Source: Minisyncoccia bacterium
GTDB lineage: Bacteria; Patescibacteriota; Minisyncoccia; Phycocordibacterales; UBA9973
Length of the DNA: 64,000 nt
Direction: 5' to 3'
Assembly: GCA_041737125.1 (NCBI GenBank)
Contig: JBGSSJ010000011.1
Coordinates: forward strand, 33,568 to 97,567
Made by a program: the position numbers and the translations under genes. The notes beneath the pieces were generated by a model. The model was not told where the DNA came from. It did not search any database and was given only the letters and a program-made list of their open reading frames with translations. The first letter of the stretch is position 1, and each line of letters opens with the position of its first letter. This document shows positions 17,936 through 35,303 of this stretch, in pieces.

Positions 17936-17940
17936 AATTA

Positions 17941-18876
17941 TTAACCTGTCCAGTTATAAGCCATAATACTAAAATCGACTAGTGTAACTTTGGTATCGTT
18001 ATTCAAATCCACTTTCGCTGGTATATTTGTTTTCTTATACCAGAAAGCCATAATTGAAAAGTCCACCAAGTTTACGTGATTATCACAGTTAAGATCACCA
18101 CGGAGAGTAGAACATAGTACTTCTTCTTTCACTTTCGTCTCATTGCCAACCAGGAAGGATAACGGTGAAGTGAAAGAACTAACTCTAGTGTCTATAGCGC
18201 TTTTGGATTTGGTTTGGTGCTTACCTAATTCTAGTATTGCTGTGTCTAAATTATACAAATAAACACCATTAGTATTAGATTTAATCTTGAAGAAATATTC
18301 TGGATCTGAATGTACAGATATAGTTATATCACTCGATGGCACACTCTGACCAAAGATAGCGAGATTATCCCCTTTTTTAACTTCACTTTTATCTATGTCT
18401 ATAGTAGGAGATAGATATATGTTGCCGATATTTACAGTTGTCCCACTTGTAATATATAAAGGGAAGGAAAAAGACTGGGATTTCCTACCTTTTGCGTCTT
18501 CACCATAGACTGAGAAAGTGTAGTTCCCAGTCGAAAGGTTAGTAACAGACACAGAGAAATTCGCCCCAGGATCAGAAATAGTATTTACTACAATGACACC
18601 ATCTTGCAGTATGAATACTCTTGATAATGGATATGCCATACCAGAGAAATTTACTACAGTCTGTGGTGGATTAACGCCACCACCACCACCACCACCTCCA
18701 CCACCTCCAGGTGGGGCAATATTCGAACTGACGATAGCCGATATGGATATATTATCATTGACGACAATATCCACTCCGTAAACAAAAATGGGTGTAAATA
18801 ATAAAAAAATAATTAAAAATACAATATTTTTATTTAATTTATTCTTGAACATTAGAAGATTTATTAACTGATACAT
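17941..18876 (-). CDS. secreted protein with poly-Gly tract and C-terminal dockerin-like tandem Ca-binding repeats
   Basis: signal peptide; 'PPGGGGGGGGGGGVNPP'; C-terminal 'DLNCDNHVNLVDFSIMAFWY' + 'DLNNDTKVTLVDFSIMAYNW' match dockerin D-x-N-x-D-x-x-V-N-x-x-D repeat pair. Confidence 0.6.
   Translation of the reverse strand: MYQLINLLMFKNKLNKNIVFLIIFLLFTPIFVYGVDIVVNDNISISAIVSSNIAPPGGGGGGGGGGGVNPPQTVVNFSGMAYPLSRVFILQDGVIVVNTISDPGANFSVSVTNLSTGNYTFSVYGEDAKGRKSQSFSFPLYITSGTTVNIGNIYLSPTIDIDKSEVKKGDNLAIFGQSVPSSDITISVHSDPEYFFKIKSNTNGVYLYNLDTAILELGKHQTKSKSAIDTRVSSFTSPLSFLVGNETKVKEEVLCSTLRGDLNCDNHVNLVDFSIMAFWYKKTNIPAKVDLNNDTKVTLVDFSIMAYNWTG
18669..18707. repeat. (GGN)n trinucleotide tract encoding 11 consecutive Gly in dockerin protein
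   Basis: plus strand ccaccaccaccaccacctccaccacctccaggtgg. Confidence 0.8.
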
Positions 18877-19876
18877 TTAGGCTATCATGCGCTTTCTGTA
18901 TGATATATCTATTGTATCTTTTAATAAGTCTTTTACCTCCAAAAAATATTACTATGAATATAACGAGTAGACATATTAGCAATTGCCATGGGAACACAAA
19001 GAAGAAAGCGTACTTACTAGTATGAATACTATTTGTACCGTATTCTAAGCTAAGTTTTGCGAAATAAGGTCCGAATGCATAGTTCTGCCATTGATAAAGT
19101 GCATCACTGAAAAACTTTTCAATTTTATTATCTGGACTAATGAAGTCATTACTACGTGGATTCTTCACCCAATCAATATCAAAGCGTCTTGTTGAATTAG
19201 GTAGGATGTTACCATTGGTGGGATTCGCATCAATACTATCTTCTGGTATGTATAGTAAGTCATGCATTCTTATCTTCCCAACTGGTTTAATTCTATCCCC
19301 ACCATCGTTTTTAAATCTATAAGTAAAAGAAACAGGCAGAGTATTATAGAAAACTTTATTATCTAGTGTATCAAAGCTTATCAATCCCCCAGCCTCTTTT
19401 ACGTCACCAGAGACAGATAGGAGTATCAGCATGCCTACTTTTGCTCCAATAGAGACTGCAGATGCACCTGTCCCGGTCGGATTAGTACCCCAGAAAATAG
19501 CAGCAAAGTGTCCTCCCGGGGTTGCATTTTGTGGAATATTAATTAATACAGGGACGATAACACTACCTCCAGGTGGCAGTGCGACAGATTCCTGTACAGA
19601 AATCCATTTATCCAAATCCTCTTTTGATTCTACGAAAGATGGATTACCAGACTCGCCTTGCGCTTCGAAGTTTGCAAAAGAAGAATAGAAAATTTGGTTT
19701 GCATCAGTATCATTAGTAAGAGTCATCTCTTGTTGTATTGTCTCACCTGGATTACCTTTTATCTCTATTCGAGGTGGAGATACAGATATAGCTTCAGCTC
19801 TAAATGTAGAAAAGAAAAATACACCCGATATGACGGCAATCTGTATAAGCATGCGTTTTGTAAATCGGATGTTCAT
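18839..19876 (-). CDS. secreted protein with C-terminal TM anchor (cell-surface; family uncertain, DUF916-like impression only)
   Basis: signal peptide 'MLIQIAVISGVFFFSTFRAEA'; C-terminal TM 'WQLLICLLVIFIVIFFGG' + basic tail. Confidence 0.55.
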   Translation of the reverse strand: MNIRFTKRMLIQIAVISGVFFFSTFRAEAISVSPPRIEIKGNPGETIQQEMTLTNDTDANQIFYSSFANFEAQGESGNPSFVESKEDLDKWISVQESVALPPGGSVIVPVLINIPQNATPGGHFAAIFWGTNPTGTGASAVSIGAKVGMLILLSVSGDVKEAGGLISFDTLDNKVFYNTLPVSFTYRFKNDGGDRIKPVGKIRMHDLLYIPEDSIDANPTNGNILPNSTRRFDIDWVKNPRSNDFISPDNKIEKFFSDALYQWQNYAFGPYFAKLSLEYGTNSIHTSKYAFFFVFPWQLLICLLVIFIVIFFGGKRLIKRYNRYIIQKAHDSLNVSVNKSSNVQE

Positions 19877-19894
19877 TTTTCTTTTATTTAATTA

Positions 19895-20983
19895 TTAGTA
19901 AGTAGCAGTAGCGACGTATGTGTGATTTGCAGTATAAGTTCCTGCTTCTGTTACAGCATCAATGTTTGCAAGGTATCTTAGTGAGTATGTTGTTGTAGCA
20001 GAAGGACCTCCGACACTAGCTAGTGTTACTGCAGTTGATGCAGTAGGAGTCCATGCATATCCAGATGCTGCGAACGGTGCTTGGACGGCACCACTTCCGC
20101 CAGATGCTGTAGCTCTGACTCCGAACTGTTCTGTGGCAGGAGATGAAGCAGTGTTAACTGCTAATGGTGTTATTGTATTTGCTCCTGAAGTAAGAGTTGC
20201 ACCCTGAGCTGTAATTACATATCCTGATGTAGCATTTGTTCCAGCTGTGATATTAAAAGCTTCTGTCTCTGTAGTAGTAGGACAAGTTACGGCTCCAGGA
20301 TCAGTTCCTTGAGCGAAACAGGCACCAGCAGTACGCAAGTTACCGAAGAATACTGTATTGTCAGACAAAGCAAAAGATATACTAGGCACAACTAAAGCAT
20401 TCACCACAACTACATCATCAGATACGATTGGTATACCTATAGTTCCAGTATCAGTGAAAGTTCCAGATATATATAATAGTGTAGTTCCAGCAGAACCGTT
20501 TGTTATCTGTTGATCACCAGTAGCACCCGTAGTAGCATTTGTTCCTATTTCAATAACTATCACACTACCACCAGCTACAGCTGTAGTGCCGTTCGTAAAT
20601 GTAATTACTGTACCTGAAGTGCGAACTACTCCCCATGTCGCAGCAGCGGGAGCAGCAGCGAGAGTCACATCAACACCATCATCAGTTAAATCTATGTCAG
20701 TAAAATCAAGTGGGGCAGGAATACTCGTGGAGTTATCGAATGTAAGTATTATAGTCTGTCCAGAAGCAACACCAGTTGGAGTAGTGAATGTTATAGTATG
20801 GTTTGCTACAGTTGAAGCTTTTTCTGCATTTGTCGCACCTGTTGCAGGTGAGAGCCTATCAGACATAGCGGTAAGAGATGCAGCTTCTGCTACTTTTGTA
20901 AAGTATGGAGTAAAAGAAGTTACACATACGAACATGAACATTAGGACGACGTTGGTAATATTTAAAAGTGTTGATTTTTTCAT
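19895..20983 (-). CDS. secreted Thr/Ala/Gly-rich beta-rich surface protein (paralog A), C-terminus ends in alternating aromatic pattern ...HTYVATATY
   Basis: signal peptide (AEA|AS); paralogous to 21084..22082 ('FGNLRTAG'/'FGNLSAGAS', 'EQFGVRA'/'EQFGLRA', 'YSLRYLANID'/'YSVRYVGNID'). Confidence 0.55.
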   Translation of the reverse strand: MKKSTLLNITNVVLMFMFVCVTSFTPYFTKVAEAASLTAMSDRLSPATGATNAEKASTVANHTITFTTPTGVASGQTIILTFDNSTSIPAPLDFTDIDLTDDGVDVTLAAAPAAATWGVVRTSGTVITFTNGTTAVAGGSVIVIEIGTNATTGATGDQQITNGSAGTTLLYISGTFTDTGTIGIPIVSDDVVVVNALVVPSISFALSDNTVFFGNLRTAGACFAQGTDPGAVTCPTTTETEAFNITAGTNATSGYVITAQGATLTSGANTITPLAVNTASSPATEQFGVRATASGGSGAVQAPFAASGYAWTPTASTAVTLASVGGPSATTTYSLRYLANIDAVTEAGTYTANHTYVATATY

Positions 20984-21083
20984 ATTTAATAAATTTTAAT
21001 AATAAATTACTCTTTAAGTAGATATATTTTACCATATTTTAAAGGTAAAATATACAAAGATAGCTGTTGATAACTATCATAAA

Positions 21084-22082
21084 CTAAAATGTTCCAGTGA
21101 CCACATAATTGATATGAGCTACATAGGCACCCGCTGCTGTATTACTGTCTATATTACCTACATATCGGACTGAGTAGACAGTATTACTATTATCCCCCGC
21201 CCCGCTTGCAAGCTCGTCTGGGAATGATCCAGTATCGAGAGCAAAACCTGAAGCAGCATATGGCGAAGTTACAGTGCCTGTACCACTAGTTACACTTGCG
21301 CGTAATCCGAACTGCTCTGTCCCTACGCTTGGAGCAGTATTTGTACCACCGATAGCATCTATAGTATTGCCTCCATATGTAAGAGTAGTTCCATCCACAG
21401 ATAGAACGTAGCCACTAGGCGCATTTGTACTAGCAGAAATTGTATGCGCCTCGACTTCGGTACCACTTCCAGTACTTGTATCTGCATATCTCGACGCTCC
21501 GGCTGATAAATTACCAAAGTTTACAGTATTAGCGGAAATTGAGAAATTAATACTAAGTGGAATAATAGTAGCACAAAGCTTGCGTGTATAAGCCGAACCA
21601 TCACCCAATGTGGCATTATCAGAGCCGGACAAAGATAGAAGTGTTGTATCGTAGCCAGAACAATTGTTGTCTTGATAGCCACTTGATATCTCATTTGCGG
21701 TGACAGAATCAGAAAGACAGACATTAGAGCCATAAGTATTCACACTTGTCTCTTGCATGTGGGCATTCGTCGCCGAAGAAATTCTTCCTAGTATTTCATA
21801 GTTACCACTACAAGAGTTCCCTATCGACAAAATACCAGTACAACAGACAACATTATTATCATAATTAACGTTGGATTGGCTGGGTAATTCTGCATGAGCA
21901 TTAGTCGAACCCGACATACGAAGTATTACAGTTCCCGTACAAGAGCCCACGGTCGTAACCGAGCAAGTAAGTGCACCATAAGCATAAGATGTAGGTATCA
22001 TAATTAATAAAGCCAAAAATAGAGACAAAATAGTTCCCGAAATTTTATCTTTTTTAGTTTTATCAATTATGTTTAAAAACAT
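21084..22082 (-). CDS. secreted Thr/Ser/Gly-rich surface protein (paralog B), C-terminus ...INYVVTGTF
   Basis: signal peptide; paralogy to 19895..20983 as above. Confidence 0.55.
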   Translation of the reverse strand: MFLNIIDKTKKDKISGTILSLFLALLIMIPTSYAYGALTCSVTTVGSCTGTVILRMSGSTNAHAELPSQSNVNYDNNVVCCTGILSIGNSCSGNYEILGRISSATNAHMQETSVNTYGSNVCLSDSVTANEISSGYQDNNCSGYDTTLLSLSGSDNATLGDGSAYTRKLCATIIPLSINFSISANTVNFGNLSAGASRYADTSTGSGTEVEAHTISASTNAPSGYVLSVDGTTLTYGGNTIDAIGGTNTAPSVGTEQFGLRASVTSGTGTVTSPYAASGFALDTGSFPDELASGAGDNSNTVYSVRYVGNIDSNTAAGAYVAHINYVVTGTF

Positions 22083-22090
22083 TTTATAGA

Positions 22091-22504
22091 CTATTGCTCG
22101 TCCAAAGGCACACTCTCTGCATTATTCTTTGTATTTAATGGAGCAATATTAATTATCTTATTTGCTACAGGATCAAACAATATAGCCTTTTTAGCATTAC
22201 TATATATGAGGACTTTATAACCAACTTTTGAATCTGCAAAGAATGCCTGATCTCGAAGTGCTTCTGGATCAGAGACCGTAGCTATGGTCGGAGTCTCACC
22301 TTCTGGAAGAAGTACAATTCTACCTACTTTTTTTGAAAGACTCTGTGCTTCAGCCATAGATTCTTGAACACTAGTATCTAAAAGCTTACTCTGTTTATAG
22401 AAGTAGACTGCTGCCACCCCCAATCCTATTACCAAGATAATAAGGATAAATAAGATATATTTTTTTAACAATGTATTTTTCATATTTATAATTCTATTAC
22501 ACAA
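22091..22504 (-). CDS. small N-terminally membrane-anchored hypothetical protein
   Basis: TM 'ILFILIILVIGLGVAAVYFY' then soluble domain; likely true start at MKNTLL (22483). Confidence 0.5.
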   Translation of the reverse strand: MCNRIINMKNTLLKKYILFILIILVIGLGVAAVYFYKQSKLLDTSVQESMAEAQSLSKKVGRIVLLPEGETPTIATVSDPEALRDQAFFADSKVGYKVLIYSNAKKAILFDPVANKIINIAPLNTKNNAESVPLDEQ

Positions 22505-23542
22505 TTACAATTTATTCAACCTACTATCTTTACCTATCTTTTCATAGAAAAAGTGAGAGATTTGTTTAATGATATTTTGTTGCTTATTTAAGTCGTTACC
22601 TCGAGTCATCACGCACAATATGTATGGCGCCTCCAAATGATATACAATACCGCAGTCGTGCAACTGAATTATATCTTCCTTTACATTTTTAAAGTCAGTA
22701 GGAAAACGCTCACCATATTTATGTGCAACTTTTATTTTATTTGGAACACCGGCCACTAATCCATCATGATAATTGTTTTCTGAAAGTATTTTTAATACTG
22801 TTTCCGAATGTTCTCTATTCAAATATGAAGCATTGAAAAGAATACGATAAAATGATGCCATATCCTTAATTCGTAGGAATATTTCATTATCTTGATTTAC
22901 ACGAACAACGCCAATATTGAGAAAAGTATTATCAATATATTCTTTTGGGATCTGTTCATATAGCATTGCAGTTGCGACATTGTCTGAATTCTTAATCATT
23001 TTTTCTGCAAGCACAGCGAGCGAGTACGGTTGACCAATTTGAATATCTGTAGGCTCTGAATTTATCTGATCTGGAATGTTAGAGAAAAACCGCTGTTCCG
23101 CAATAACCACTTTGGAGAGAGCTGAAGGTGTAGTTTCTGACCATTTATAAAGAGCAATGATAAGTGGTGTCTTAAGCATACTTGCAGGTGTAAAGTATTC
23201 CTTTTCATTTATACCTATCCATGGACCATTATTCAAATCTCGAAAGTATACAGATATGTGATTAATATATTTCTCTTCTTGAATTTTTTCTACAAATCTT
23301 CGCACCTCGCTAGAATCTAGCATAGCCTCTGAAGAAGATGTGGATAGCTCGAAATCAAGAATAGGATTAGTAAACTTATATTCCCCACCCTTCTCTCTCG
23401 TAATAGTTCCCTTTGTTTGATTCTTAAGATTTATGATTCGTGCTTGCTGAACTATAATTATGACCAAAAATACTATTGCTATCGTGCAGAAAATAGTTGT
23501 TTTCTTATTCAAGCTATTTTTATTTATTTTGGGTATTGCCAT
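22505..23542 (-). CDS. membrane-anchored class A beta-lactamase-fold serine hydrolase (PBP/beta-lactamase family)
   Basis: N-terminal TM; S-x-x-K 'PASMLKTP', SDN 'KNSDNVATAML', KTG-like 'HKYGE'. Confidence 0.65.
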   Translation of the reverse strand: MAIPKINKNSLNKKTTIFCTIAIVFLVIIIVQQARIINLKNQTKGTITREKGGEYKFTNPILDFELSTSSSEAMLDSSEVRRFVEKIQEEKYINHISVYFRDLNNGPWIGINEKEYFTPASMLKTPLIIALYKWSETTPSALSKVVIAEQRFFSNIPDQINSEPTDIQIGQPYSLAVLAEKMIKNSDNVATAMLYEQIPKEYIDNTFLNIGVVRVNQDNEIFLRIKDMASFYRILFNASYLNREHSETVLKILSENNYHDGLVAGVPNKIKVAHKYGERFPTDFKNVKEDIIQLHDCGIVYHLEAPYILCVMTRGNDLNKQQNIIKQISHFFYEKIGKDSRLNKL

Positions 23543-23544: not shown

Positions 23545-26500
23545 TTAATATTCTGAGACTGTAGTATTATCAGTATTTTCTTCTATTATAAGTGGTGCTT
23601 CCACAGTTACTTTTGGGCTCGGAACAGGCGTACTCTCCTCTATTATAGGTGCGGGTTCATCTGGAGAAGTTACTTCCTCAATAATTATTTCCTCAGTTAC
23701 TATTTCGGGTACTAGTTCAGTAGAGGGATTTTCCGGTGATGGGACATCATCTTCTTGGGGTACTTGTTCTAGAGGAGCTTCTGTAGGTATTTCTATGTCG
23801 AGTCCTTCTACTAGACTCTCTACAATTTTAGGATCTTTTACGCCTAATGCTACCCAAGAGAAGCGTATATCCCGAGGTGCTTTCTTATTCAAGAATATTG
23901 TGAACCCTGTTTGATCTTTCTCTACCACTAGGTGGCGTACATCTTCGAAGAAGAATGCTTCAGCAGTGGCATCATCCATATTATCTGTAACCTCAAATGT
24001 AATATTTGTGGTTATCACAGGCGTGGTCACATAAGGCTCATCGAATACTACTCGCACTCGTCGGTCTTCCTCTTTTATAAGAGCAAAACCTGCTGTATCT
24101 TTGTTAAATATTGGTGGGATAGTGAACTCTGTCTGTGCACCGAAGACTACAGAGCCATCAAATGTAGTACTATTGGCAAAGAATGAAAGTCCACTAAACT
24201 GTGCTTTGCCTTCGAAAGTACTCTCTCCTGTTGCTTTGAAATTTGCTGTAGTTACTGATGTGAGTGCATCAAATGCATTTGCTCCGAGCAATGTTTCAAG
24301 TGCAGTGATTCGCTCAATCAGCGCATCAAAACCAGCAATTTTAGTAGCTTCAATTTCTTGTGCAGTAATTTTACCATTAAATACTGCATTTCCGAGTGCA
24401 TCAATAGTCATAACCGCAGCATCTTCACTATTTTTCTTTACAGAGAAGATTCCATTATTAAGAACAAGCGCGAGTGATCCATCTATTCCCCCAGTGAGCT
24501 GGCTTGTCACTACAGTATCAGCAATAAGTGTAGGTGTAAGAATTTCAAACCCAGCAGCAATTCTATCTGTGAAGAAGCTCTCTAGTGGAAGAGCGTTTGT
24601 CTCCTTGTCATCACGTGTTGCACGCAAGAATGACATGATAGACCATTGTGTTCCAAGCTCTGCTGTAAGTCCATCAACTGAAACATGGCCGTCTTCTATA
24701 GAACCATATTCTTGTGCAAGAATCTCTACATTTTGACCAAGTGATTCTCCAAGCCCAACAAAGAGCATAACATATCCGCACTGTATTCCTGTTGATGATT
24801 GCACTTGTTCTCCTTGCGCTTCACCTTCTACACGCTCTCCACCTACCCATGGACCTTCAGGAAGAGCAACATTTTCAAGTGCTGGAAGAGGGGCATCGCA
24901 TGAAGTCATTCCGTATGGCTCATTGAGTACACGACCTATCACTGCTCCGGCTGAAGTCGCGCGCATTGCATATCCTTCACGGGAAGACGAGGTGAGGAGG
25001 TCACCTACCTTTATAGGGCCATTTTCTGTCGTTACCTTAACAGGTACACGACCGGAGAGCGCAACAGCGTATGCATTTTCTGCTACAGGTCCTAAAATAA
25101 GTCCTGGTCGTGTGGAAATAACACCGAGCAGATTCTTTTGATACCTTCGAGAAGACTTACCAATTCCAGCTTCTTGACTTGGTTCAATGGAGACGACATC
25201 GCCTGCCTCAAGTGTTTCATTTGAGTAATAGTACTCAGCAAGGTCGGCTCCTTGACCGAGACCAAGCACATCTTGTGTGGCCCCAAAGAGACCACTAGCC
25301 ACCAAACTCATTCGAACATCCTCAAGAGCAAGGAGCGTATCTGCTTGGAGTTGTTTTATACTTACATCTTTTCTTTCTACTCTGATACCTGTACCAGTGG
25401 CAAACAAGATAGTATCCGTATATATAGCTATTGATTTTATGTCATCAGAACCAGTACCACTCCACGTAGTACCAAAATCATCTTCTTCAATACCAGAATC
25501 ACTACTATGCACTTCTGTTTTAATTCCTCCTGCCCCAGCATTTGTAAATGTTGAAATTCCTCCACCATCTGCCCCATCATCAGTACCAACATACAAACTA
25601 CGAGTCTTGTTAATTTGTGTAGGGGCATCAACAGCAATAGAGGTTACGTTATTTGTAGATCCATAGAGCTTAGAAGGAGAAACTCGGTAATCACTTGTTG
25701 CATCTGGTGTGACCGACCATGCAGGCGCCACAGTAAAGGCAGTTGCATCATTTGAAATAATATTTCTTGTTTGTCCAGCCCCAGTTCCTCCAGTGATTTC
25801 AACAACAAGCGAAGTAAATGAATTTGGAACATAGGTTGCAGTCGTACTTCCTATTGTCGTTCCACTGAAAATATCAGCATTCTCAACGGAGGTTTGTGGT
25901 CGTATGAGATGTGTTCGTCCATCAAGGAAGCGTCTATTTGCAGAAGCAGAAACGGTACCTGAAGATGTCGTTGCACCTGCACTCCACGTGAATTCATCAA
26001 TTTCTCCATCCCAGAAACTATCCCCTGTGGCGCAGTTAGCCCCAGTACATCGGCCACCAATGGTGAGCACTTGTGCTGCGTCAAGTGTTGCTGTTGCTGC
26101 AAGAGCTGTATCACACGCAGCTGCCAAGCGTCCGTCTATATACATACATAAGTCTGTGTCAGTATTCGTAAGCAAGAAATGATGCCACTGACCATCGTTC
26201 CATGTTCCAGAAGAAGTCAAACCGTCATCCATCGACAAAGTTCCCACAGTTGTCCATGTCCCATCATCATCAATACCTGCAGTGATAGTTCCTGTAGTTG
26301 TCATACCAGCATAGATACAAGCGGCAGCTGTAGGAGTTGCAGGAGTATAACATCGCTCAAAGAGCACATCAGCTGCTGCGGTCGTTGAATGTTTAAACCA
26401 AAGCGAAACCGTAAAGGAAGTTGCTGCAACGTTGTTGTCTGTATCACTGTCACACGTGCCGTCCGCATTGGCATCACTACAGAGGTACGAGTTATTATTG

Positions 26501-29500
26501 AAATTCACTGACCCTCCTCGAATACCATTACCTCCAAATGTTGGTGCTGTTGCGCCTGCTTGGTCAAGTGGATTTCTGGTCGTCCCCGTATTTCCAACCG
26601 CACTATTTGTAGATGTCGCACCTACTGCATCATCAAAAAGGTACGCTGAACGGACTCCTCCATTCATATACGGAGTTGCACTATCCTTCGTTGTGATCTT
26701 TGACCATGAGGCATTCGCAAGTGCACCTCCTGATGTGTGCACTTCTGCAAGACCTTGGTTTGTACCGACAAACACAATATCACCTGAGTCAATCTGTCCC
26801 GCTGCAGCAGCTTCCCTTGCAGCAGAACCACGCTCAATCACTGCAAGAGCGCTCGGTGAAGTCGAAATAGTGGGAACAGCCCCCTCAAGTGTAATCGGCG
26901 TATTCCCGGCGAGTGTTTCGTCATACCATCGTGTAGGAGTTCCGTTTGCCTGTGTTGTTATCACCGTATCTACTCCGCGCCATTCTTCAAGTTGAGCGCG
27001 CGTTTCATTCGTCGCATACATACGACCACGCTTAGTCATGTACACCTGATTGTAGTCATCATTTGTTGCATCAGAATAGTTGATGACCTTTCGTGCTCCC
27101 ATATTGATAACAGACACTCCAGAGTCAGTAGCAGCTGCAATAATAGTGACTCCAAGCATTGGTCCTCCTTGAGAATCAACTGGCGCAATAAGTGTACCCG
27201 CTCTTCCTTCCATGGATCCAGTCTGAACATTTACTGACACATCATTGACTGTGTTGTTGATAATAGCAAAACCTGTCTCTGCATTAGCAGCATACGTGGC
27301 AGTTGAATTTCGATTGCCAATATTTATATCTGCTTGAGTCCTGTTTGTAGTGTTATATCTATATAGAACATCTTGTTTAAAATCAAATGCATATAAACCT
27401 GTAGCAGAAGCCCCGTTTGTACCAACATAAATAACACCATTTTGAGCAGTTACTCCAGAGGGGTTGTTGTTAGTATCTGCACCGAGTGCATAGGTGCCCG
27501 CTTGAGTAAACTTCATCCAAAGTGAATTATCAGCACTGTCAAATATATACAGTCCATCAGCAGTCGTAGCAATAATAGCCTTACGAGGAAAGGCTGAACT
27601 TCCACAACGATCATCAGTTGAGATACTACATGCATCTCCTGCCCCATCGTCTTTAGCCTCAGTTGCCCAAGATCTTTGCATCATCTCTAGAGAGTTACGC
27701 CACTCACCTGCATCAACATCAACAGATGTATCGTATATAAATGTATCTATAACCCCAGTGAGACTCCGTGCAATAGTTCCCCCTTTTACAATAAGGTCTC
27801 CATATACAAGTGCATTACCACGACTTATAGCGGTACCGACTTGGAAAATATCGTTGGTTGTTGAAGATCCATCAGAGAGAACAAGTGTTCCGTTATCTGC
27901 AAGTGTCATTTGTGGAGTTGCATCAATAAATCTGATGTCGCTATCCCATCCAGAACCAATCACAAGTGCATTCTCTGTTGCTGCAGTACCTGTGATGTTT
28001 GCGATATTTAAACCATTAAATGTCTCATCACCTGATGGTGTGTTTACTGGAATGAGTGTAATGTTGAGTCCTGAGTTTGTGTTTGTTGTTCCGTTTCCGA
28101 CTTCCATTGCAATAGAGAGCCCATCGACTCCGTCAGTGACTATCCCTGTTGTTCCACCAGTTAAATTTACTACCATCGAGTCGGCGGTAGGTATAACATT
28201 GTTCGCAGTGTTCTGTATAGTGATAGAGCCCAAGGTTGAAGTGTTGCCGGAACTATCTATCTGGAAGAGGTCACCGTTACCAACAGTAAAGAGTGATGCG
28301 GGTGATGCATCTCCGATACCGACGTTACCATTATTAAAAATAAAACCATTACTAGGACTATCACCATTTACTGCTAAATACACACTAGAACCATTACCAC
28401 TAAAATCACCTATGTAAACATTATCTAAGGCTTCAAGATAAATATTTCCACTGGACGCTCCATTCGTAACGTCTAAAATACCTCTAGGAGCTATAGTTCC
28501 TATACCTACCCTCCCGCCCATATCTGGCACCAACAAGGCATAATTATCCGTCCCTCCTGTTGCACTTGCATATAACGCTACATTAGTAGATGACGTTCCT
28601 GTTTTAACATTGGTAAAATAACCACCATAGGTCGTTTGAGTTGAAGTAGCGTTTGCACCCGACTGTGCGACTTCAAATATTTTCTGTGCATTTGATGCTG
28701 CAGCAGTAGAAGTAGACGAGAGTTTGAGTCCTGTTGCGCCCGCGAGTGTATTCCATTGCCATTCTTGAGTGTAGTCCGCATTGTTGATAGTGTTGGTAGC
28801 TCCTGCTGCAGAGAGACTAGAAAGTGCAACCGCTCCTCCACAAGAAGCAACTGAAAGCGTTCCTGATCCGTTTGACTGGAGACATCCAGATGCATCTGCA
28901 GCAGGAAGAGTCCATGTGTATGACGCAGTAACAGCAGCGGGAGCTTGGAGTGCTGCAAAGTCTGTCCCTCCTCCTGTTTCGACAAATCGCAAATCAGCCC
29001 CTGCAAAGAGTGATGTGTTCCCTGATCCATCTACTTGGAAGAGGTCGCCGGAGCCGACAGTGAAGAGTGAAGCGGGTGATGTGTCTCCAATCCCCACATT
29101 CCCACTATTAAGTATCCTCATCGCTTCAGTGGCTCCGTTGTTCCCCGTCTGGAAAATAATATCTGCACCTGTTGTTCCCACTCCTGAAGTTGAGCGAAGC
29201 GTTAGTGGAGATGTAGTAGTGGTACCTCCGATAACAAGTGGTGTGGTGATGTCTGTGGTGAATGTTGGAGATGTAGAGAAGACAGCAAGGCCAGAACCAG
29301 TTTCGTCTGTGAGAGCGCTTGCTAAGTTTGCAGATGACGGAGTAGAGAGCCATGTAGAAATTCCACTACCGAGTGTGGTTACAGAAAGTGCACCTGTTCC
29401 TCCTGATGTAGTAACAAATCCATTCGTAGAAAGTCCTGAGAATGTGATACTACCACTTGATGTGATACCTGTGGCTGCAATAATTGCTCCTGTACTATCT

Positions 29501-32500
29501 ACTTGAAATTGAGATGTGGAGCCGACGGTGAACGCTGAGTCAGGTGTGACATCTCCGATACCCAGATTTGCTGCTTCATTCCTAAAATAACTATTACCGT
29601 TTGCATTCAAAACAATTACAGCAACTCCATTTCTTTGAATATCAATACGACCTTGATCTGAGTTTCCATTATAAAGCCTGACTACTCTTCGTGATGAGTT
29701 TGCCCCTTCGACATACAATTCACTCCCTTTAGAAAGTCTGACATTGCCTCCCACATCAAGTTTCTCTGCAGGTGAAAGACCAATACCGACGTTTCCACTA
29801 TTAAGTATCCTCATCGCTTCCGTCGCTCCATTGTTCCCTGTTTGGAAAATAATATTTGCACCTGTTGTTCCCACTCCTGAAGTTGAGCGAAGTGTCAGTG
29901 GTGATGTTGTAGTTGTTCCTCCGATAATAAGTGGAGTGGTGATGTCTGTGGTGAAGGTTGGAGATGTAGAGAAGACAGCAAGGCCAGAACCAGTTTCGTC
30001 TGTGAGTGATCCTGCAAGGTCTGCAGAGGTGAATGATCCTGTCGCTGTACCATAAAGTGTACCTGATGTTGGGAGCGTAACATTTGTTGTACCTGTAGAG
30101 GTAAATGTAGTATTAAATGCACCAGAGGTAGTGAGCGCTCCTCCGAGGGTAATTATTTTACCTGCACTATTGTTCACACCGGTACCTCCGTTTGTTGGAG
30201 AGAGAAGTCCAGAGACAGCAGACGACGAAGCGATGTTGATAGCTCCAAATGCAAGTGCAGTACCTCCCCCATTAAGACGAAGGACTTGGTTCCCTGTACC
30301 TACGATATCAGCTACATCTCCTGTTGTGTTTGTTTCTCTACCGATGACTGATACTCCTGCAGACTGTCTCAATTTCCCGTCAGTAACAGTATTTGCATCG
30401 ATAGTCATTACTGTTCCTGTTCCTGATACTGTTATATCGCCGTAATCAAGATCAGAGAGCCCACCACTCACCGCGCTCCAGCTTCCATCTCCCCTTAGGA
30501 ACGTTGATGCACTAGGTGTCCCCGTGATAGCTGATGCAAAGATAGGAAGTGTGTTTGATGCAATCTTTTCAAAAACGCCAGTTCCAGTATTACGAGTGAT
30601 GAGATCGTATGAGCCTGCTGAAGTTGTAGGTGTTGTGGAGAGCGTGAGAGTTCCGGATGATGTGATACCTGTGGCTGCTGTAATAGCACCACCAGAAGTG
30701 ACTTGGAATTGTGCAGCAGAGCCTACGTTGAATAATGAAGTTGAAGTAGTAGAACCAATAGTGACATTACCACTTGCCTCAATTCTCATTTTTTCACTTC
30801 GCGTAGTAGAGTTATTCGCAGTTGTCTCAAATCGGAGACTTGTTCCATATGCAGAACCATCACTCCACGCTTGAGAAGTATATGCAGCAATACCAGCAGT
30901 AGAGCGCAGTGGTTGTGCCCCCGAAGAAGACCCTCCAAACAATACGCCCCCCAATCGATCAAGTGAAGACATTGCTCCCCCGTCATTACTATAGAGCCCT
31001 ATGAGTGCGCCAGCAAAAGCACCTGATGCGCCTCTACTCTCACCGGCAAACACAAGACCTGACGTAGCCCCGCTGGACGAAACAGATACAGATTCAGTCC
31101 CCACAACAGAATCGAACGATGAGTGTGTTGCACCGAGCGTTAGTTTGGATACAGGACTTGCTGTCCCTAATCCCAACCTATCATTCGTATCATCCCAAAA
31201 GAAATTCGCATTGTCTTGAACGATTGTTGTACCGTTTGAGAATAGTACTGAACCGGTAGTTAGTGATGGAAGTGTGAACTTTGCATTGATTTGTGATTGT
31301 ATTCCTGAAGTCACCCCTTTGACATATGATATTTCTGTGAGTGATGGATATGTTACAGTTGCAAGTGAACCTAGAGTATTTGTTCCACTCCAGTAGGTCA
31401 GTTCGTTTGCAACCCCTGTACCAACGGAGGTGAGGTATGTACTTGAATCTAGTGATCCATCACCTTTAATAAAGTCTGTACTGGCACCTATACCAGTGGA
31501 AGTTAAGTTCTTGGATGCATCAGTGAATACAACCTTTGATGCTGTGAGGCCAGAGAAGTTGATGGTTCCTGATGATGTGATACCGGTAGCCGCGGCGATG
31601 GCACCGGAGGAGTTGACTTGGAAGAGGTCGCCAGAGCCGACAGTGAGCATCGCTGCAGGAGTAGTGTCGCCAATACCAACGTTACCATCACCACCTATTC
31701 TCATTCTTTCTCCATCTCCAGCACGGAACTGAAGAAAACTTGTCGCATCAGCAGTACCTGAACCATTTCCAGAAACAGAAGTATAACCAGAGTTCGTGCC
31801 GAAATATAAATTCTGGTTAAACCCAACACCTACAGATCCGGTAAATGTACCCGCACCAGTAACAGTAAGCGGAAAAGTCGGCGTGTTCGTCCCGATACCG
31901 ACGTTTCCAGCATTTACAATGAGCCCATAGTTAGCAGTTGTAGCTCCTGATGCATCTAAGTAGAGAGCTACGTTTGTACCTGAGGTAGCATTTGTTTTCG
32001 TGTTTGATATTTGCGCACCGTACGTAGTGATAGCATTCGTAGATGTTGCACCGGAAGTGAGGATATTCAAACCAGTTTGTGACGCGCCTGCGTCGGTGCC
32101 TGAGATTTGAATATCAATTAATCTTCCCGATGTAAGACTTGATGAAGCAAGATATGCACCAGTACCTGTAGTAAGGGAGTTGAAGTTTCCTACTAATGCT
32201 GATGCTGTGGTAGCTTGGGTAGTGTTTGCTGAAGTAAGTGCAATTGTGCCTGTAGTAGTGAGTCCCGTTGCTGCCACAATAGCACCGGTCGAGTTCACCT
32301 GAAATGCATCACCTGAGCCCACAGTAAGCATGGACGCTGGTGATGGGTCACCGATACCCAAAGATGCTGCAGCGTTTACAAAATAGCTATCTCCACTTGC
32401 ATTAAGTCGGATATTAACAGCTCCGTCTCTTTGGATATCAATCATTCCTTGACTCAACCCTCCACTGTTATACAAACGAACAGCGCGTCGTGCAGGAATA

Positions 32501-33294
32501 GTCCCCTCGATATAAAGCTCACTTCCTGGAGAAAGTCTGACATTCCCCCCGACATCAAGTGTCTCTGATGGTGATGAAGCAACGTTAACTCCCAATCTGT
32601 TTGTTGAATCATCCCAAAAGAAGTTTGCATTATCTTGTGCAATGGTACTGCCATCAGAGAAGAGGACTGATCCTGAAGTTAGTGATGGAAGTGTGAACTT
32701 TGCATTGATTTGTGATTGTATTCCTGAAGTCACCCCTTTGACATAAGAAATTTCTGTGAGTGATGGATAGGTTGCAGTTGCAAGAGAAGAGAGAGCACCT
32801 GGACCCGAGAAGTATGCAAGCTCATTCGTAGTACCTGAGCCAGATAAACTTCCACAAGCCCCCCATGATGGAGCAGATCCAGTATTACCGATAAGACACT
32901 CACCAGTAATACCTGCAGCAGTGACTCCCATAGCGGAAGTACCGTTACCGTAAATAATTCCGTTGGAAGTAAATGTCCCTGCACCAGTTCCTCCTTGAGC
33001 TACAGTCACAAGTGCATTCGTAGTGAGGATGGTCGCATTCGCATCAGGGAAAGTATAAGTACGGACTCCTGTCTGGTTGTTGGTAACAGCGAAAACTCCA
33101 TCTCCAAGCTCTGCCCATGGGTGGCCTGGGTTCGGTGTCGCTCCACTTACTATTCCGAAAATAGAAAAGGCAACAAAGATAGAAAGTATCGTATACACGA
33201 CATAGTGTATAGAAAATTTAGGAGCAATTTTCCTTAAAATTCTTTGTACGAAATTTGAAATTTGTTGCTTGTAATTTTTAAACATAAAATACAA
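23545..33294 (-). CDS. giant (3249 aa) N-terminally TM-anchored surface protein: tail-fibre-like Gly/Thr/Ser repeat modules, LamG domain, C-terminal lectin-like domain and Pro/Glu-rich tail
   Basis: single uninterrupted ORF; N-terminal TM 'YVVYTILSIFVAFSIFGIVSG'; recurrent 'GNVGIGxxxPxxxLTVGSGDxFQVxSxGAI' modules; LamG 'FTVSLWFKHS...MYIDGRL...WDGEIDEF' (~25960-26420); C-terminal 'RVRVVFDEPYVTTPVITTNITF...FSWVALG' (~23830-24130). Confidence 0.8.
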   Translation of the reverse strand: MYFMFKNYKQQISNFVQRILRKIAPKFSIHYVVYTILSIFVAFSIFGIVSGATPNPGHPWAELGDGVFAVTNNQTGVRTYTFPDANATILTTNALVTVAQGGTGAGTFTSNGIIYGNGTSAMGVTAAGITGECLIGNTGSAPSWGACGSLSGSGTTNELAYFSGPGALSSLATATYPSLTEISYVKGVTSGIQSQINAKFTLPSLTSGSVLFSDGSTIAQDNANFFWDDSTNRLGVNVASSPSETLDVGGNVRLSPGSELYIEGTIPARRAVRLYNSGGLSQGMIDIQRDGAVNIRLNASGDSYFVNAAASLGIGDPSPASMLTVGSGDAFQVNSTGAIVAATGLTTTGTIALTSANTTQATTASALVGNFNSLTTGTGAYLASSSLTSGRLIDIQISGTDAGASQTGLNILTSGATSTNAITTYGAQISNTKTNATSGTNVALYLDASGATTANYGLIVNAGNVGIGTNTPTFPLTVTGAGTFTGSVGVGFNQNLYFGTNSGYTSVSGNGSGTADATSFLQFRAGDGERMRIGGDGNVGIGDTTPAAMLTVGSGDLFQVNSSGAIAAATGITSSGTINFSGLTASKVVFTDASKNLTSTGIGASTDFIKGDGSLDSSTYLTSVGTGVANELTYWSGTNTLGSLATVTYPSLTEISYVKGVTSGIQSQINAKFTLPSLTTGSVLFSNGTTIVQDNANFFWDDTNDRLGLGTASPVSKLTLGATHSSFDSVVGTESVSVSSSGATSGLVFAGESRGASGAFAGALIGLYSNDGGAMSSLDRLGGVLFGGSSSGAQPLRSTAGIAAYTSQAWSDGSAYGTSLRFETTANNSTTRSEKMRIEASGNVTIGSTTSTSLFNVGSAAQFQVTSGGAITAATGITSSGTLTLSTTPTTSAGSYDLITRNTGTGVFEKIASNTLPIFASAITGTPSASTFLRGDGSWSAVSGGLSDLDYGDITVSGTGTVMTIDANTVTDGKLRQSAGVSVIGRETNTTGDVADIVGTGNQVLRLNGGGTALAFGAINIASSSAVSGLLSPTNGGTGVNNSAGKIITLGGALTTSGAFNTTFTSTGTTNVTLPTSGTLYGTATGSFTSADLAGSLTDETGSGLAVFSTSPTFTTDITTPLIIGGTTTTSPLTLRSTSGVGTTGANIIFQTGNNGATEAMRILNSGNVGIGLSPAEKLDVGGNVRLSKGSELYVEGANSSRRVVRLYNGNSDQGRIDIQRNGVAVIVLNANGNSYFRNEAANLGIGDVTPDSAFTVGSTSQFQVDSTGAIIAATGITSSGSITFSGLSTNGFVTTSGGTGALSVTTLGSGISTWLSTPSSANLASALTDETGSGLAVFSTSPTFTTDITTPLVIGGTTTTSPLTLRSTSGVGTTGADIIFQTGNNGATEAMRILNSGNVGIGDTSPASLFTVGSGDLFQVDGSGNTSLFAGADLRFVETGGGTDFAALQAPAAVTASYTWTLPAADASGCLQSNGSGTLSVASCGGAVALSSLSAAGATNTINNADYTQEWQWNTLAGATGLKLSSTSTAAASNAQKIFEVAQSGANATSTQTTYGGYFTNVKTGTSSTNVALYASATGGTDNYALLVPDMGGRVGIGTIAPRGILDVTNGASSGNIYLEALDNVYIGDFSGNGSSVYLAVNGDSPSNGFIFNNGNVGIGDASPASLFTVGNGDLFQIDSSGNTSTLGSITIQNTANNVIPTADSMVVNLTGGTTGIVTDGVDGLSIAMEVGNGTTNTNSGLNITLIPVNTPSGDETFNGLNIANITGTAATENALVIGSGWDSDIRFIDATPQMTLADNGTLVLSDGSSTTNDIFQVGTAISRGNALVYGDLIVKGGTIARSLTGVIDTFIYDTSVDVDAGEWRNSLEMMQRSWATEAKDDGAGDACSISTDDRCGSSAFPRKAIIATTADGLYIFDSADNSLWMKFTQAGTYALGADTNNNPSGVTAQNGVIYVGTNGASATGLYAFDFKQDVLYRYNTTNRTQADINIGNRNSTATYAANAETGFAIINNTVNDVSVNVQTGSMEGRAGTLIAPVDSQGGPMLGVTIIAAATDSGVSVINMGARKVINYSDATNDDYNQVYMTKRGRMYATNETRAQLEEWRGVDTVITTQANGTPTRWYDETLAGNTPITLEGAVPTISTSPSALAVIERGSAAREAAAAGQIDSGDIVFVGTNQGLAEVHTSGGALANASWSKITTKDSATPYMNGGVRSAYLFDDAVGATSTNSAVGNTGTTRNPLDQAGATAPTFGGNGIRGGSVNFNNNSYLCSDANADGTCDSDTDNNVAATSFTVSLWFKHSTTAAADVLFERCYTPATPTAAACIYAGMTTTGTITAGIDDDGTWTTVGTLSMDDGLTSSGTWNDGQWHHFLLTNTDTDLCMYIDGRLAAACDTALAATATLDAAQVLTIGGRCTGANCATGDSFWDGEIDEFTWSAGATTSSGTVSASANRRFLDGRTHLIRPQTSVENADIFSGTTIGSTTATYVPNSFTSLVVEITGGTGAGQTRNIISNDATAFTVAPAWSVTPDATSDYRVSPSKLYGSTNNVTSIAVDAPTQINKTRSLYVGTDDGADGGGISTFTNAGAGGIKTEVHSSDSGIEEDDFGTTWSGTGSDDIKSIAIYTDTILFATGTGIRVERKDVSIKQLQADTLLALEDVRMSLVASGLFGATQDVLGLGQGADLAEYYYSNETLEAGDVVSIEPSQEAGIGKSSRRYQKNLLGVISTRPGLILGPVAENAYAVALSGRVPVKVTTENGPIKVGDLLTSSSREGYAMRATSAGAVIGRVLNEPYGMTSCDAPLPALENVALPEGPWVGGERVEGEAQGEQVQSSTGIQCGYVMLFVGLGESLGQNVEILAQEYGSIEDGHVSVDGLTAELGTQWSIMSFLRATRDDKETNALPLESFFTDRIAAGFEILTPTLIADTVVTSQLTGGIDGSLALVLNNGIFSVKKNSEDAAVMTIDALGNAVFNGKITAQEIEATKIAGFDALIERITALETLLGANAFDALTSVTTANFKATGESTFEGKAQFSGLSFFANSTTFDGSVVFGAQTEFTIPPIFNKDTAGFALIKEEDRRVRVVFDEPYVTTPVITTNITFEVTDNMDDATAEAFFFEDVRHLVVEKDQTGFTIFLNKKAPRDIRFSWVALGVKDPKIVESLVEGLDIEIPTEAPLEQVPQEDDVPSPENPSTELVPEIVTEEIIIEEVTSPDEPAPIIEESTPVPSPKVTVEAPLIIEENTDNTTVSEY
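29095..29335. repeat. ~235-bp intragenic direct repeat, copy 1 (copy 2 at ~29755-29995, ~90% identical)
   Basis: encodes duplicated block 'LTDETGSGLAVFSTSPTFTTDITTPLIIGGTTTTSPLTLRSTSGVGTTGA(N/D)IIFQTGNNGATEAMRILNSGNVGIG'. Confidence 0.8.
31262..31326. repeat. 65-bp 100%-identical intragenic repeat (second copy 32681-32745) within ~230-bp diverged repeats
   Basis: agtgatggaagtgtgaactttgcattgatttgtgattgtattcctgaagtcacccctttgacata in both places; encodes 'SYVKGVTSGIQSQINAKFTLPSLT'. Confidence 0.85.
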
Positions 33295-33404
33295 CTATAT
33301 TATATCATAGTTGTATAGTAAAAATAGCTAAAAAGTGCTTTTTATTTAAGGTTTTTGTGGATAACTTTTGTTTTAAATTTCGGAAGAATTATTGGTCAAT
33401 TTTA

Positions 33405-35303
33405 CTAGCGGACTTCATACCCTAGAGACGCTATTTTCTCTGTAATTTTAGACATTATCATATTCACTTCTTCGGTCTCTAGAGTGCGGTCATATGACTG
33501 GAAAATCAATCGATAAGCATAAGATATTTTACCATTTTTCTTGAACATATCCAAGAGTTTTGGCTCCCCTTGTAGCAATTCTGTGCCGAATTCCGTATAA
33601 ACCTGTGAAAGCACACTACTTTCGACATCTTCAGGCACCCAAACAGCAATATCACGCACCATAAATGGATAAAGTGACCACATTTTGAAATACGAAATGT
33701 CTGTAGTCGTGGAGTCAGGAAGTGAAGCAAGAAGTTCGTTATGAGAGCCTTGCGCAGAGCTGGCTCGAGCAGAGAAATTTCCCTCCAAGGAAATATTCGT
33801 GCTCCCAGAAGGAAGCTCCTCCGAAGCATTATCTCGAATAAATTCATCTAAACTCATTTCTTTCATTTCTTTTTTATTTACGAATGCGATATTTAGGAAC
33901 TCTTCCCCATTTTTAAATACCGTCCCAATTTCAAAAATTTTAATTTCATCATGGCCTAGGAATTGAGAATTTAATTTATTTAATTCATATGCATTTCGAA
34001 GTCCATCACTTAGATTCGTGCGCATGAAATTCTTATCACTAGCAGAGGCAAGTACTTCCACTTCACCTTTTTCTGTGAATGCATAAGTCATCACTTCCCT
34101 GTAACCACTCTCTACCAGGTAATTGCGAGCCTTTTTTATATTCTCATAAACAGGATTCTCTTTAGGAGTAAAGTTTATCTTTGGCAATTGTGGAATTACT
34201 TTATCGTAGCCGATTATGCGGCCAATTTCTTCTGCTATGTCGCTAGTATTTGTAAGATCTAGTCGCATAGGTGGCACCTCGAGAGTAAAGTTATTACCAT
34301 CTTTCTTATAAGTGAAATTATACCTCTTCAATATGTCTTCTACCTCCTCACCTGTTATACTTATACCTAGTATTTTGTTTATATTTTCCAAGGTAAAATC
34401 CACTTTTACTTCTTTTTGTAAATCTTTATTCGGGTATATATCCACCACATCTTCAAATGTTGCTTCCGGGCAAATTTCAGCTATCAATCCTGAAAGTTCA
34501 AGCATAGCAAAGTCACAAAGTGAGGGCGATAAATCATTCTCAAATCTTTTCGCTGAATCAGAAAGAAGTCCTAATCTGCGCGCAGTTTTCCGGACAGATG
34601 TCGGATCGAAATTCGCAACTTCAAGCACTATGTCAGTCGTCCCATCCGTAATTCCAGAATCAAGTCCACCTTTGACTCCGCCAAGTGCTAAAATTTTCTC
34701 ACCACTAGTTATAGTCAAATCATTTTCCTTTAACTTCGCAAGTATCCCTTCTCTGCCTACGACTTTCAATTCCTCTCCCTCTTTAGCATTAGTAATTCGT
34801 AATTCGTAATTCGTAATTTTCCCTAAATCAAATGCGTGTGTCGGCTGACCACAGTCATACATCACAATATTTGTCGCATCAACAATATTATTTATACTTC
34901 TCTGTCCTATGTTCTCTAAATATTCTACTACCCACTTTGGTGATGGACCTATCTTTATATTACGGACAATTCTCGCAGAATATCTACGGCAACTCGGTGA
35001 ATTAATTTCTACTTTTAGGTCAGTCGTTACGGATGGAGGAACCTTGTACATGGAAGTAGGGTCCTTAAAAGTTAACTCCAAAAGCCCCGCAAGCTCACGA
35101 GCAACACCCTGGTGTGATAGCAAATCATGAGCCCGATTCGGTAATATACCCAAGTCATAAATCCAATCTTTCTTGCCATCTATACTTTCAATAGCAGTAA
35201 CACTTTCAACTTCACAAAGATGATAAGTAAAAATACTCTCTAGATGATGAGGTTCAGGGATATCAGATATATATGATTCTAGCCAATTGTAAGAAATAAA
35301 CAT
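33405..35303 (-). CDS. pheT: phenylalanyl-tRNA synthetase beta subunit, short form (632 aa)
   Basis: 'MFISYNWLESYI...' N-terminus, B3/4 and B5 regions, C-terminal anticodon-binding-like domain. Confidence 0.85.
   Translation of the reverse strand: MFISYNWLESYISDIPEPHHLESIFTYHLCEVESVTAIESIDGKKDWIYDLGILPNRAHDLLSHQGVARELAGLLELTFKDPTSMYKVPPSVTTDLKVEINSPSCRRYSARIVRNIKIGPSPKWVVEYLENIGQRSINNIVDATNIVMYDCGQPTHAFDLGKITNYELRITNAKEGEELKVVGREGILAKLKENDLTITSGEKILALGGVKGGLDSGITDGTTDIVLEVANFDPTSVRKTARRLGLLSDSAKRFENDLSPSLCDFAMLELSGLIAEICPEATFEDVVDIYPNKDLQKEVKVDFTLENINKILGISITGEEVEDILKRYNFTYKKDGNNFTLEVPPMRLDLTNTSDIAEEIGRIIGYDKVIPQLPKINFTPKENPVYENIKKARNYLVESGYREVMTYAFTEKGEVEVLASASDKNFMRTNLSDGLRNAYELNKLNSQFLGHDEIKIFEIGTVFKNGEEFLNIAFVNKKEMKEMSLDEFIRDNASEELPSGSTNISLEGNFSARASSAQGSHNELLASLPDSTTTDISYFKMWSLYPFMVRDIAVWVPEDVESSVLSQVYTEFGTELLQGEPKLLDMFKKNGKISYAYRLIFQSYDRTLETEEVNMIMSKITEKIASLGYEVR

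Follow-up and report, generated by a model that had tools for sequence, protein, structure and literature searches.

A giant, probably Sec-exported protein of a Minisyncoccia bacterium with a phi29 gp12-type chaperone domain and a predicted self-cleavage site

The giant gene and its modules

We analyzed a 64,000-nucleotide (nt) stretch of a Minisyncoccia bacterium genome (assembly GCA_041737125.1, contig JBGSSJ010000011.1, positions 33,568 to 97,567), referred to here as the window. Its subject of interest is a single open reading frame (ORF) of 9.75 kb on the minus strand (23545-33294), the giant gene, which has 3,249 codons counted from a TTG and was already recognized as one surface-protein ORF in a first-pass annotation made from the sequence alone. 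Toward its C-terminus, the product carries an intramolecular chaperone domain homologous to that of phage phi29 gp12, with a predicted self-cleavage site at the start of the domain. With moderate confidence, we read the giant as a Sec-exported surface fibre of Patescibacteria (Paceibacteria/Parcubacteria-type) whose construction and maturation resemble those of a phage tail fibre or tailspike. The modules of the protein are as follows, from the N- to the C-terminus (within a sequence, a slash marks a predicted cleavage point):

33142-33294, minus strand: basic n-region and 23-residue hydrophobic segment ending VSG/A (residues 1-51)
32845-33141, minus strand: conserved TPNPGHPW...TYTFPDANAT...GGTG module (residues 52-150)
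28135-32844, minus strand: Gly/Thr/Ser-rich shaft with several diverged repeat module types (residues 151-1720)
26440-27747, minus strand: predicted beta-propeller blades, the first part of the head, then a low-confidence linker (residues ~1850-2285)
25966-26439, minus strand: LamG/concanavalin-like domain, Laminin_G_3 PF13385, by Pfam (residues 2286-2443)
25360-25893, minus strand: further blade-like beta segments, from the strand pattern of the model and kept in orthologues (residues 2468-2645)
25246-25359, minus strand: neck helix and conserved LFGxTQDVLGLGQGA segment before the cleavage site (residues 2646-2683)
25243-25248, minus strand: predicted autocleavage site A2683/D2684 with the motif D-L-A-E (Asp2684, Glu2687)
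24865-25245, minus strand: phi29-gp12-type intramolecular chaperone domain, MEROPS G2/PF11962-like (residues 2684-2810)
24238-24864, minus strand: mixed helix/strand linker of the putative cap (residues 2811-3019)
23815-24237, minus strand: C-terminal beta domain of H-type-lectin fold (residues 3020-3160; H_lectin-equivalent residues 3080-3150)
23548-23814, minus strand: acidic Pro/Glu-rich tail, predicted disordered (residues 3161-3249)

The reading frame is open throughout the 9.75 kb. Its start reads ...CTATGATATAATATAG-TTG-TATTTT-ATG, and an extended -10-like element, TGATATAAT, lies within 33283-33310 and ends a few bases before the TTG; a weaker promoter-like site was found as well. Because the -10-like element directly precedes the TTG, the ATG at 33285, three codons further on, is the likelier start, giving a product of 3,246 residues, and the same arrangement suggests that the mRNA leader is very short or absent. 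Up to about residue 1750, the protein is made up of 12-16% G, 11-16% T, and 10-15% S, which agrees with the Gly/Thr/Ser-rich composition first noted. The GC content of the gene is above that of its flanks. This excess comes from second codon positions (Gly, Ala, Thr, and Ser codons), and GC at third codon positions (GC3) is 0.295, equal to that of the flanking housekeeping genes; the gene therefore bears no compositional mark of recent import.

We collected orthologous loci by scanning one genome per species, which yielded 15 strong loci (L003-L017), all from metagenome-assembled genomes. They are labelled Saccharibacteria, Nomurabacteria, Moraniibacteriota, Kaiserbacteria, Parcubacteria, or Patescibacteria, with 12 of the 15 of Patescibacteria type; the other three (L007, L009, and L011) are labelled "uncultured Bdellovibrionales" but have the giant and its neighbours as in the Patescibacteria loci, and their labels are probably wrong or the bins mixed. 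Total length among the orthologues runs from 1,858 to >4,429 residues. Downstream of the orthologous giant in L010, at a distance of about 5.5 kb, comes a further giant-like ORF (18716-22888), which runs off the end of the locus and has at least 1,391 residues.

The orthologues also bear on the soundness of the assembly. Residues 1618-3179 of the giant are colinear with independently assembled orthologues at 73-79% identity, and colinearity spans 1,400-1,575 residues. Tandem Repeats Finder returned no tandem DNA repeat arrays in the gene; its strongest internal DNA repeat is 248 nt long at 90% identity, and internal repeats reach at most 253 nt and at most 90%. Given the absence of tandem repeats and the weakness of the internal ones, repeat collapse was rejected as the source of the long ORF.

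The chaperone domain and the predicted cleavage site

The whole protein matched nothing in the PDB by phmmer and nothing in NCBIfam, and homologues were sought with three segments separately, including residues 1-330 and 2468-3249. The search with the latter found 198 proteins, most of which share only two modules, residues 2682-2792 and ~3038-3155. When a 136-position profile of the chaperone region (residues 2668-2805) was run against the PDB, it matched residues 681-768 of phi29 gp12 (6qz9_A, E=9.5e-5) and, from residue 1 onward, the released gp12 fragment (3gqh_A, E=3.4e-4). The fragment starts with DFAEYFES, which aligned to DLAEYYYS of the giant, so that its residue 1 corresponds to D2684. 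D2684 and E2687 align to gp12 D692 (the P1' residue) and E695, and the uncleaved 3suc chain has Q where the motif has E. The D, A, and E of the motif are invariant in 41 diverse sequences, and the D and E in 60. The full site, LGLGQGA/DLAE, is conserved in 16 of 16 orthologues, as is the LFGxTQDVLGLGQGA segment that follows the neck helix (residues 7-28 of the predicted model).

This domain is thus homologous to the gp12 chaperone and has the fold of the released C-terminal fragment of gp12; that it is actually cleaved, we infer. The invariance of Asp and Glu and the retention of the full site in the orthologues lead us to predict autocleavage between A2683 and D2684, which would detach a 566-residue fragment comprising the chaperone, the linker, the lectin-fold domain, and the acidic tail. 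We refer to this fragment as the cap. Among homologues, PF11962 was found at the aligned position in P0077 (25.4 bits against a cut-off of 25) and weakly in P0051, P0107, and P0092. A profile of the whole cap (A2) gave nothing useful against the PDB, and PHROGs gave one match only, to a family of unknown function (residues 2681-2777).

The chaperone module is found in 29,256 clusters at 50% identity (E<=1e-3), in proteins of up to 6,814 residues, and in giant cellular proteins it lies within about 170-560 residues of the C-terminus. IMG/VR contains 430 stretches with it. Its place in 86 viral ORFs is the extreme C-terminus, with a median of 12 residues after it, a position that fits the one expected of a removable cap; the lectin-like domain occurs in 0 of the 86. 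Since the viral ORFs end near the module and lack that domain, the 455-residue extension past the chaperone domain reads as a feature of the cellular versions. Two or three chaperone modules are present in P0126, P0033, P0060, P0041, and many others, and P0060 also has a Peptidase_S74.

Within the extension, the linker (residues 2811-3019) is partly missing in orthologues L010, L014, and L015. The H-type-lectin fold of residues 3080-3150 emerged from a fold search and from Pfam matches in aligned homologues: the PF09458 matches of five homologues (24.4-34.6 bits) map onto this part of the giant, the RVRVVF...FSWVALG segment. The H-type-lectin-like C-terminus of the first-pass annotation was therefore supported by fold and by relatives but not by a direct match, as PF09458 hit neither the whole giant nor any of nine segments at E<=10. 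The Pro/Glu-rich tail is also there: the last 250 residues contain 12% E and 8% P, and the predicted local distance difference test score (pLDDT) of the model drops to 50-67 where the tail starts. Because the lectin-like C-terminus lies downstream of the phi29-gp12-type autoproteolytic site, it probably belongs to an assembly cap and not to a covalently attached binding tip, and the propeller and LamG domain would then be the head that remains on the fibre after cleavage.

In the phi29 gp12 pre-neck appendage (MEROPS G2; PF11962; 3GQH, 3SUC, and 6QZ9), the D-x-A-E cleavage motif aligns residue for residue with that of the giant, and both proteins carry the chaperone domain at the C-terminal end of a long chain of fibre-forming type. 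The giant differs in being a cellular protein with a probable Sec signal and in being about four times longer. Its chaperone is followed by 455 residues compared with about 50 in gp12, and Pfam shows no beta-helix enzyme domain of pectate-lyase type in it. Besides the gp12 entries, the chaperone profile touched a single PDB entry, the Aureispira grappling-hook protein GhpA (9FLP), which is likewise a giant surface fibre of a bacterium and serves contact between cells; this match was nonsignificant (E=0.38, 44 residues), and we do not claim homology.

Export signal, shaft, head, and gene neighbourhood

The N-terminus had been called a signal-anchor. Its basic and then hydrophobic character (residues 1-51) was confirmed, but the anchoring is doubtful: in >60 homologues found with residues 1-330, ordinary signal peptides ending AxA directly precede TPNPGHPW(T/S)(E/D)(V/L)GDG (for example, MVLGLAFIFASTALA/TTPNPGHPW and ...SDITFA/VTPNPGHPW). 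The junction in the giant reads ...FGIVSG/ATPNPGHPW. Because VSG/A precedes the very module that follows typical signal peptides in the homologues, cleavage by signal peptidase I is likelier in the giant too, and residues 1-51 are probably a Sec signal peptide cut at VSG/A rather than a membrane anchor.

At E<=1e-3, the same search returned 660 proteins, and their coverage is highest over residues 50-140. The proteins with the TPNPGHPW module, which corresponds to no Pfam family, come mostly from Patescibacteria and range from about 220 to 3,249 residues; names carried by the N-terminal homologues include Paceibacterota, Pacebacteria, and Uhrbacteria, and the module is also borne by P0019, a complete relative of 1,351 residues. 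Some of the proteins that start with TPNPGHPW close with a Peptidase_S74 chaperone. A constant proximal N-terminal end with an exchangeable distal end is the logic of phage fibres, and because TPNPGHPW starts occur with differing C-terminal ends, this analogy gives modest support to a polarity with the N-terminus proximal to the cell. The module is thus a candidate for the attachment end. Another N-terminal module, INYQGKL...DGTY, stands after canonical signal peptides in the complete orthologues L004, L008, L010, L011, and L015.

The internal protein repeats of the giant are confined to residues 150-1720 and fall into several module types. This shaft is the length-variable part of the family, spanning about 450 to >3,000 residues. 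The "dozens" of GNVGIG modules first reported came down to six copies of G[NDR]VG[IV]G, or about 10 with degenerate ones, in the form GNVGIG...LTVGSGD...FQV. The proposed relation to the Chlorovirus glycoprotein repeat was rejected, since PF06598 matched neither the whole protein (E<=1) nor any of nine segments (E<=10). Some similarity to phage tail fibres did hold up: short stretches of 70-120 residues match cyanophage tail-fibre, "chaperone of endosialidase," and virion proteins at 36-57% identity, and short matches to jumbo-phage virion proteins were found as well. On these matches, the tail-fibre-like character of the shaft holds at motif level only.

In the head, the LamG domain named in the first-pass annotation was confirmed by Pfam (PF13385, residues 2286-2443, E=3.4e-11, 44 bits against a gathering cut-off of 27.6). 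In the model, blade-like strands flank it on both sides, and LamG therefore appears to be inserted in or between the blades of the candidate propeller, which would be of the seven-bladed, Reg_prop-like sensor type. The highest-identity matches of the propeller are ligand-sensing domains, and searches of Pfam, NCBIfam, and PHROGs gave no catalytic family for the head. Head and cap together form the conserved core of the family (residues ~1700-3180, 51-79% identity).

The genes around the giant are as follows:

36604-39582, minus strand: AddA/UvrD-type helicase with a C-terminal PD-(D/E)XK nuclease, upstream of pheS/pheT
33405-35303: pheT
22505-23542, minus strand: class-A-like beta-lactamase-fold protein, N-terminally anchored (PF13354, E=3.8e-34)
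14738-22504, minus strand: downstream surface-protein cluster
12528-14633: gyrB

The beta-lactamase-fold gene, gyrB, pheT, and a cohesin gene had all been named as neighbours and are all in place. The beta-lactamase-fold gene starts 2 nt after the stop codon of the giant, and its motifs are intact (S121xxK, S186DN, and K275YG). It adjoins giant homologues in at least ten other loci, namely L001-L004, L007, L008, L011, L014, L016, and L107 (L001 5470-6462, L002 6303-7295, and L107 4296-5306), the short relative P0019 being among these homologues. After it, the cluster encodes a 137-residue membrane protein, two paralogous secreted proteins whose C-terminal halves are 49% identical, a protein that weakly resembles DUF916/WxL-interacting proteins and has a transmembrane segment at the C-terminus, an Ig and dockerin-like protein, and three cohesin-like, C-terminally anchored paralogues. 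Cohesin PF00963 was found in 14738-16117 (33.4 bits against 24.1), and the other two paralogues have no Pfam match; Dockerin_1 in 17941-18876 scored 19.1 bits, below the cut-off of 22.9, with two DxNxDxxVxLVD repeats present. In the giant itself, we found no dockerin-like motif that would tie it to the cohesin-like neighbours. Homologues of the cluster follow the giant in L003, L005, L006, L012, L013, L016, and L017 and precede it in some loci. The layout of 14738-22504 recalls the WxL/Csc surface clusters of Gram-positive bacteria; no WxL domain was detected in it.

The first-pass annotation had raised the question of whether this island is an insertion between gyrB and pheT, and comparison of the interval argued against it. 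The genes recur in the 15 loci, usually elsewhere and without pheT as the customary upstream neighbour, and GC3 equals that of the flanks. A syntenic locus, L106 (GCA_038322745.1, contig JBBQGF010000012.1; gyrB protein 85% identical), has the order helicase-pheS-pheT-[3.8 kb]-gyrB-thrS, with the helicase placed as in the window. Its interval contains, around 9358-11582, a 271-residue gene with the N-terminus of the giant (62% identity over 148 residues), a piece matching the lectin-fold domain (residues 3093-3194, 46%), and the small membrane protein. The pheT-gyrB interval is thus highly variable between relatives, at 18.8 kb in the window compared with 3.8 kb in L106, and because L106 keeps remnants in the same interval, the site looks like an old home of the giant gene in this lineage, grown here or decayed in L106. 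No phage structural, replication, or integrase genes were found among the neighbours; with this, the recurrent cellular neighbours, and the GC3 of the flanks, a prophage origin was rejected. A tRNA gene (59040-59126, minus strand) is the sole Rfam match in the 64-kb window.

A proposed surface fibre, its alternatives, and its meaning

We propose the following course of events for the giant. The hydrophobic segment would direct Sec export and probably be removed at VSG/A, and the exposed TPNPGHPW module would then hold the fibre at the cell surface, perhaps through a product of the adjacent cluster. The ~1,600 Gly/Thr/Ser-rich residues would form a long beta-structured shaft, probably trimeric and differing in length by lineage, and the distal propeller with its inserted LamG would be the likeliest ligand-binding part, the ligand probably being a glycan. 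The last 566 residues may serve as an assembly cap (chaperone, linker, H-type-lectin-fold domain, and acidic tail) that starts trimer folding at the C-terminal end and afterwards severs itself at A2683/D2684 via Asp2684 and Glu2687; once cleaved, it would leave or stay noncovalently at the tip. Work on gp12 by Xiang et al. in 2009 reportedly found that the domain helps trimerisation, that cleavage comes after trimerisation, and that release of the fragment is ATP (adenosine triphosphate)-dependent; the same authors are said to have suggested that bacterial adhesins mature likewise. The cellular context, with 15 loci that have recurring surface-protein neighbours and no phage genes, counts in favour of this proposal. 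Trimer state, polarity on the cell, and adhesin function we infer. A host- or surface-attachment device is plausible, and of the host- or substrate-binding adhesin first suggested, the part that is supported is a giant exported, surface-type protein of a reduced-genome bacterium.

Several points weigh against this proposal. PF11962 did not match the giant directly, in the whole protein or in segments at E<=10, and its membership comes from the family profile and the fold. The 455 residues with a lectin fold that follow the chaperone would be odd in a discarded part, some relatives have SH3_3 domains after the lectin, and the many family members with two or three chaperone modules are not explained by a simple terminal-cap model. 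The release of the phi29 cap is reportedly ATP-dependent, and ATP is not expected outside the cell, where the giant would be. The hydrophobic stretch of 23 residues has the length of a transmembrane helix, and an uncleaved anchor is possible. The model of the head is of low confidence (pLDDT 55), and the good conservation of the head across distant lineages is unlike a host-specific receptor binder under diversifying selection. Cleavage, trimerisation, and binding are all proposed from sequence and model.

Some of these points would fit better if the N-terminal helix stayed uncleaved as an anchor and the C-terminal H-type lectin were the host-binding tip, with the cap uncleaved or cleaved but retained. 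The transmembrane length of the helix, the SH3_3 domains that relatives add past the lectin, and the phage chaperones that lack the extension, suggesting that it has a function of its own, all agree with this arrangement. However, the lectin lies downstream of a family-invariant motif that aligns exactly with the phi29 cleavage site, the same N-terminal module follows ordinary cleavable signal peptides in homologues, and with no direct Pfam H_lectin match, the lectin function is putative. We regard this arrangement, the main rival to our proposal, as possible but doubtful.

An unlikely alternative is that the giant is not a host adhesin but a structural part of the envelope (a spacer fibre or a spike of a surface layer, for instance) or a fibre whose head degrades polysaccharide as a tailspike depolymerase does. 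In its favour, teichoic acid is degraded by phi29 gp12 itself, head identity stays at 51-79% between different lineages of Patescibacteria, and the gene is steadily paired with a beta-lactamase-fold serine hydrolase whose SxxK, SDN, and KxG motifs are intact. In contrast, the head has no detectable catalytic family in the three databases searched, its propeller resembles ligand-sensing domains rather than enzymes, and the LamG and lectin folds point to binding.

Far less probable is that the gene was inserted recently by horizontal transfer or encodes the tail fibre of a phage, prophage, or tailocin. Viral contigs often carry the chaperone module (the 430 stretches), there are the short matches to cyanophage tail-fibre and jumbo-phage virion proteins, and the GC content is above that of the flanks; nevertheless, the neighbourhood is free of phage structural, replication, and integrase genes, the protein has a probable Sec signal sequence, the same surface-protein neighbours recur in 15 loci, GC3 is that of the flanks, and L106 holds remnants at the same pheT-gyrB site. 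An assembly artefact of collapsed or chimeric repeats is just as improbable: related giants are often found at contig ends or beside scaffold gaps and so are hard to assemble, but the uninterrupted frame, the lack of tandem or strong internal repeats, and the colinearity with independent assemblies speak for a real gene.

Seen as an exported fibre, the giant resembles the fibres of phages and R-pyocins (R2 pyocin 6CL6 and AP22 gp53 4MTM; of S74 type, K1F endosialidase and T5 pb1), which have a constant N-terminal end and a C-terminal head with a removable chaperone. Chaperones of the S74 type are as a rule removed after folding (PMC10579305). The giant differs in that its chaperone is of the G2 type, not the S74 Ser-Lys type, in that it is chromosomal and secreted, and in that its lectin-like domain comes after the cleavage site, not before it as in the lectin-like fibres of this group. 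The cap also recalls the H-type lectins (Helix pomatia agglutinin 2CCV, discoidin I/II, and coral SLL-2; PF09458). Aligned homologues pass the Pfam threshold for this family, whereas the sequence of the giant does not match it, identity is only 13-18%, and sugar binding is putative.

In Patescibacteria, Absconditicoccaceae proteins of >1,500 residues with concanavalin A, FN3, and integrin domains have been put forward as candidate host-attachment factors (PMC13059738). Like the giant, these proteins of episymbiotic ultrasmall bacteria combine a signal peptide with lectin/concanavalin-type domains and are proposed adhesins; they are described by domain content, and a fibre shaft, a propeller-LamG head, a G2 cap, and a beta-lactamase-fold pairing are not described. 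Our literature searches on the architecture of the giant in Patescibacteria and on "Peptidase_G2" found nothing specific: the literature searched holds no description of a G2-type chaperone with a lectin-fold cap in a Sec-exported cellular fibre or of a giant gene repeatedly accompanied by a beta-lactamase-fold gene and a cohesin-like gene set. Every domain of the giant belongs to a known fold, and the family is very large.

A bolder scenario, which we offer as speculation and consider rather unlikely as a whole, is that Patescibacteria adopted the self-cleaving G2 chaperone of phages, added an H-type-lectin cap to it, and in this way assemble Sec-exported giant fibres extracellularly and without ATP. 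Together with the recurrent gene set (beta-lactamase-fold hydrolase, small membrane protein, cohesin/dockerin-like scaffold, and DUF916-like protein), the fibre would form a previously undescribed attachment organelle, with TPNPGHPW fastening the fibre to the scaffold and the cleaved cap controlling or arming the propeller-LamG tip.

To our knowledge, apart from type IV pili, little has been learned of the means by which ultrasmall episymbiotic bacteria locate their hosts and stay attached to them. What had been a giant hypothetical protein is now split into defined parts: a predicted cleavage site at A2683/D2684, a propeller-LamG head, a lectin-fold cap, and a partner hydrolase. Should cleavage indeed take place extracellularly, the chemistry known for this chaperone family would be broadened. 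Because the chaperone module reaches so many clusters (29,256) in giant cellular proteins, phage-style maturation of surface fibres may be a general and under-annotated theme in bacteria.

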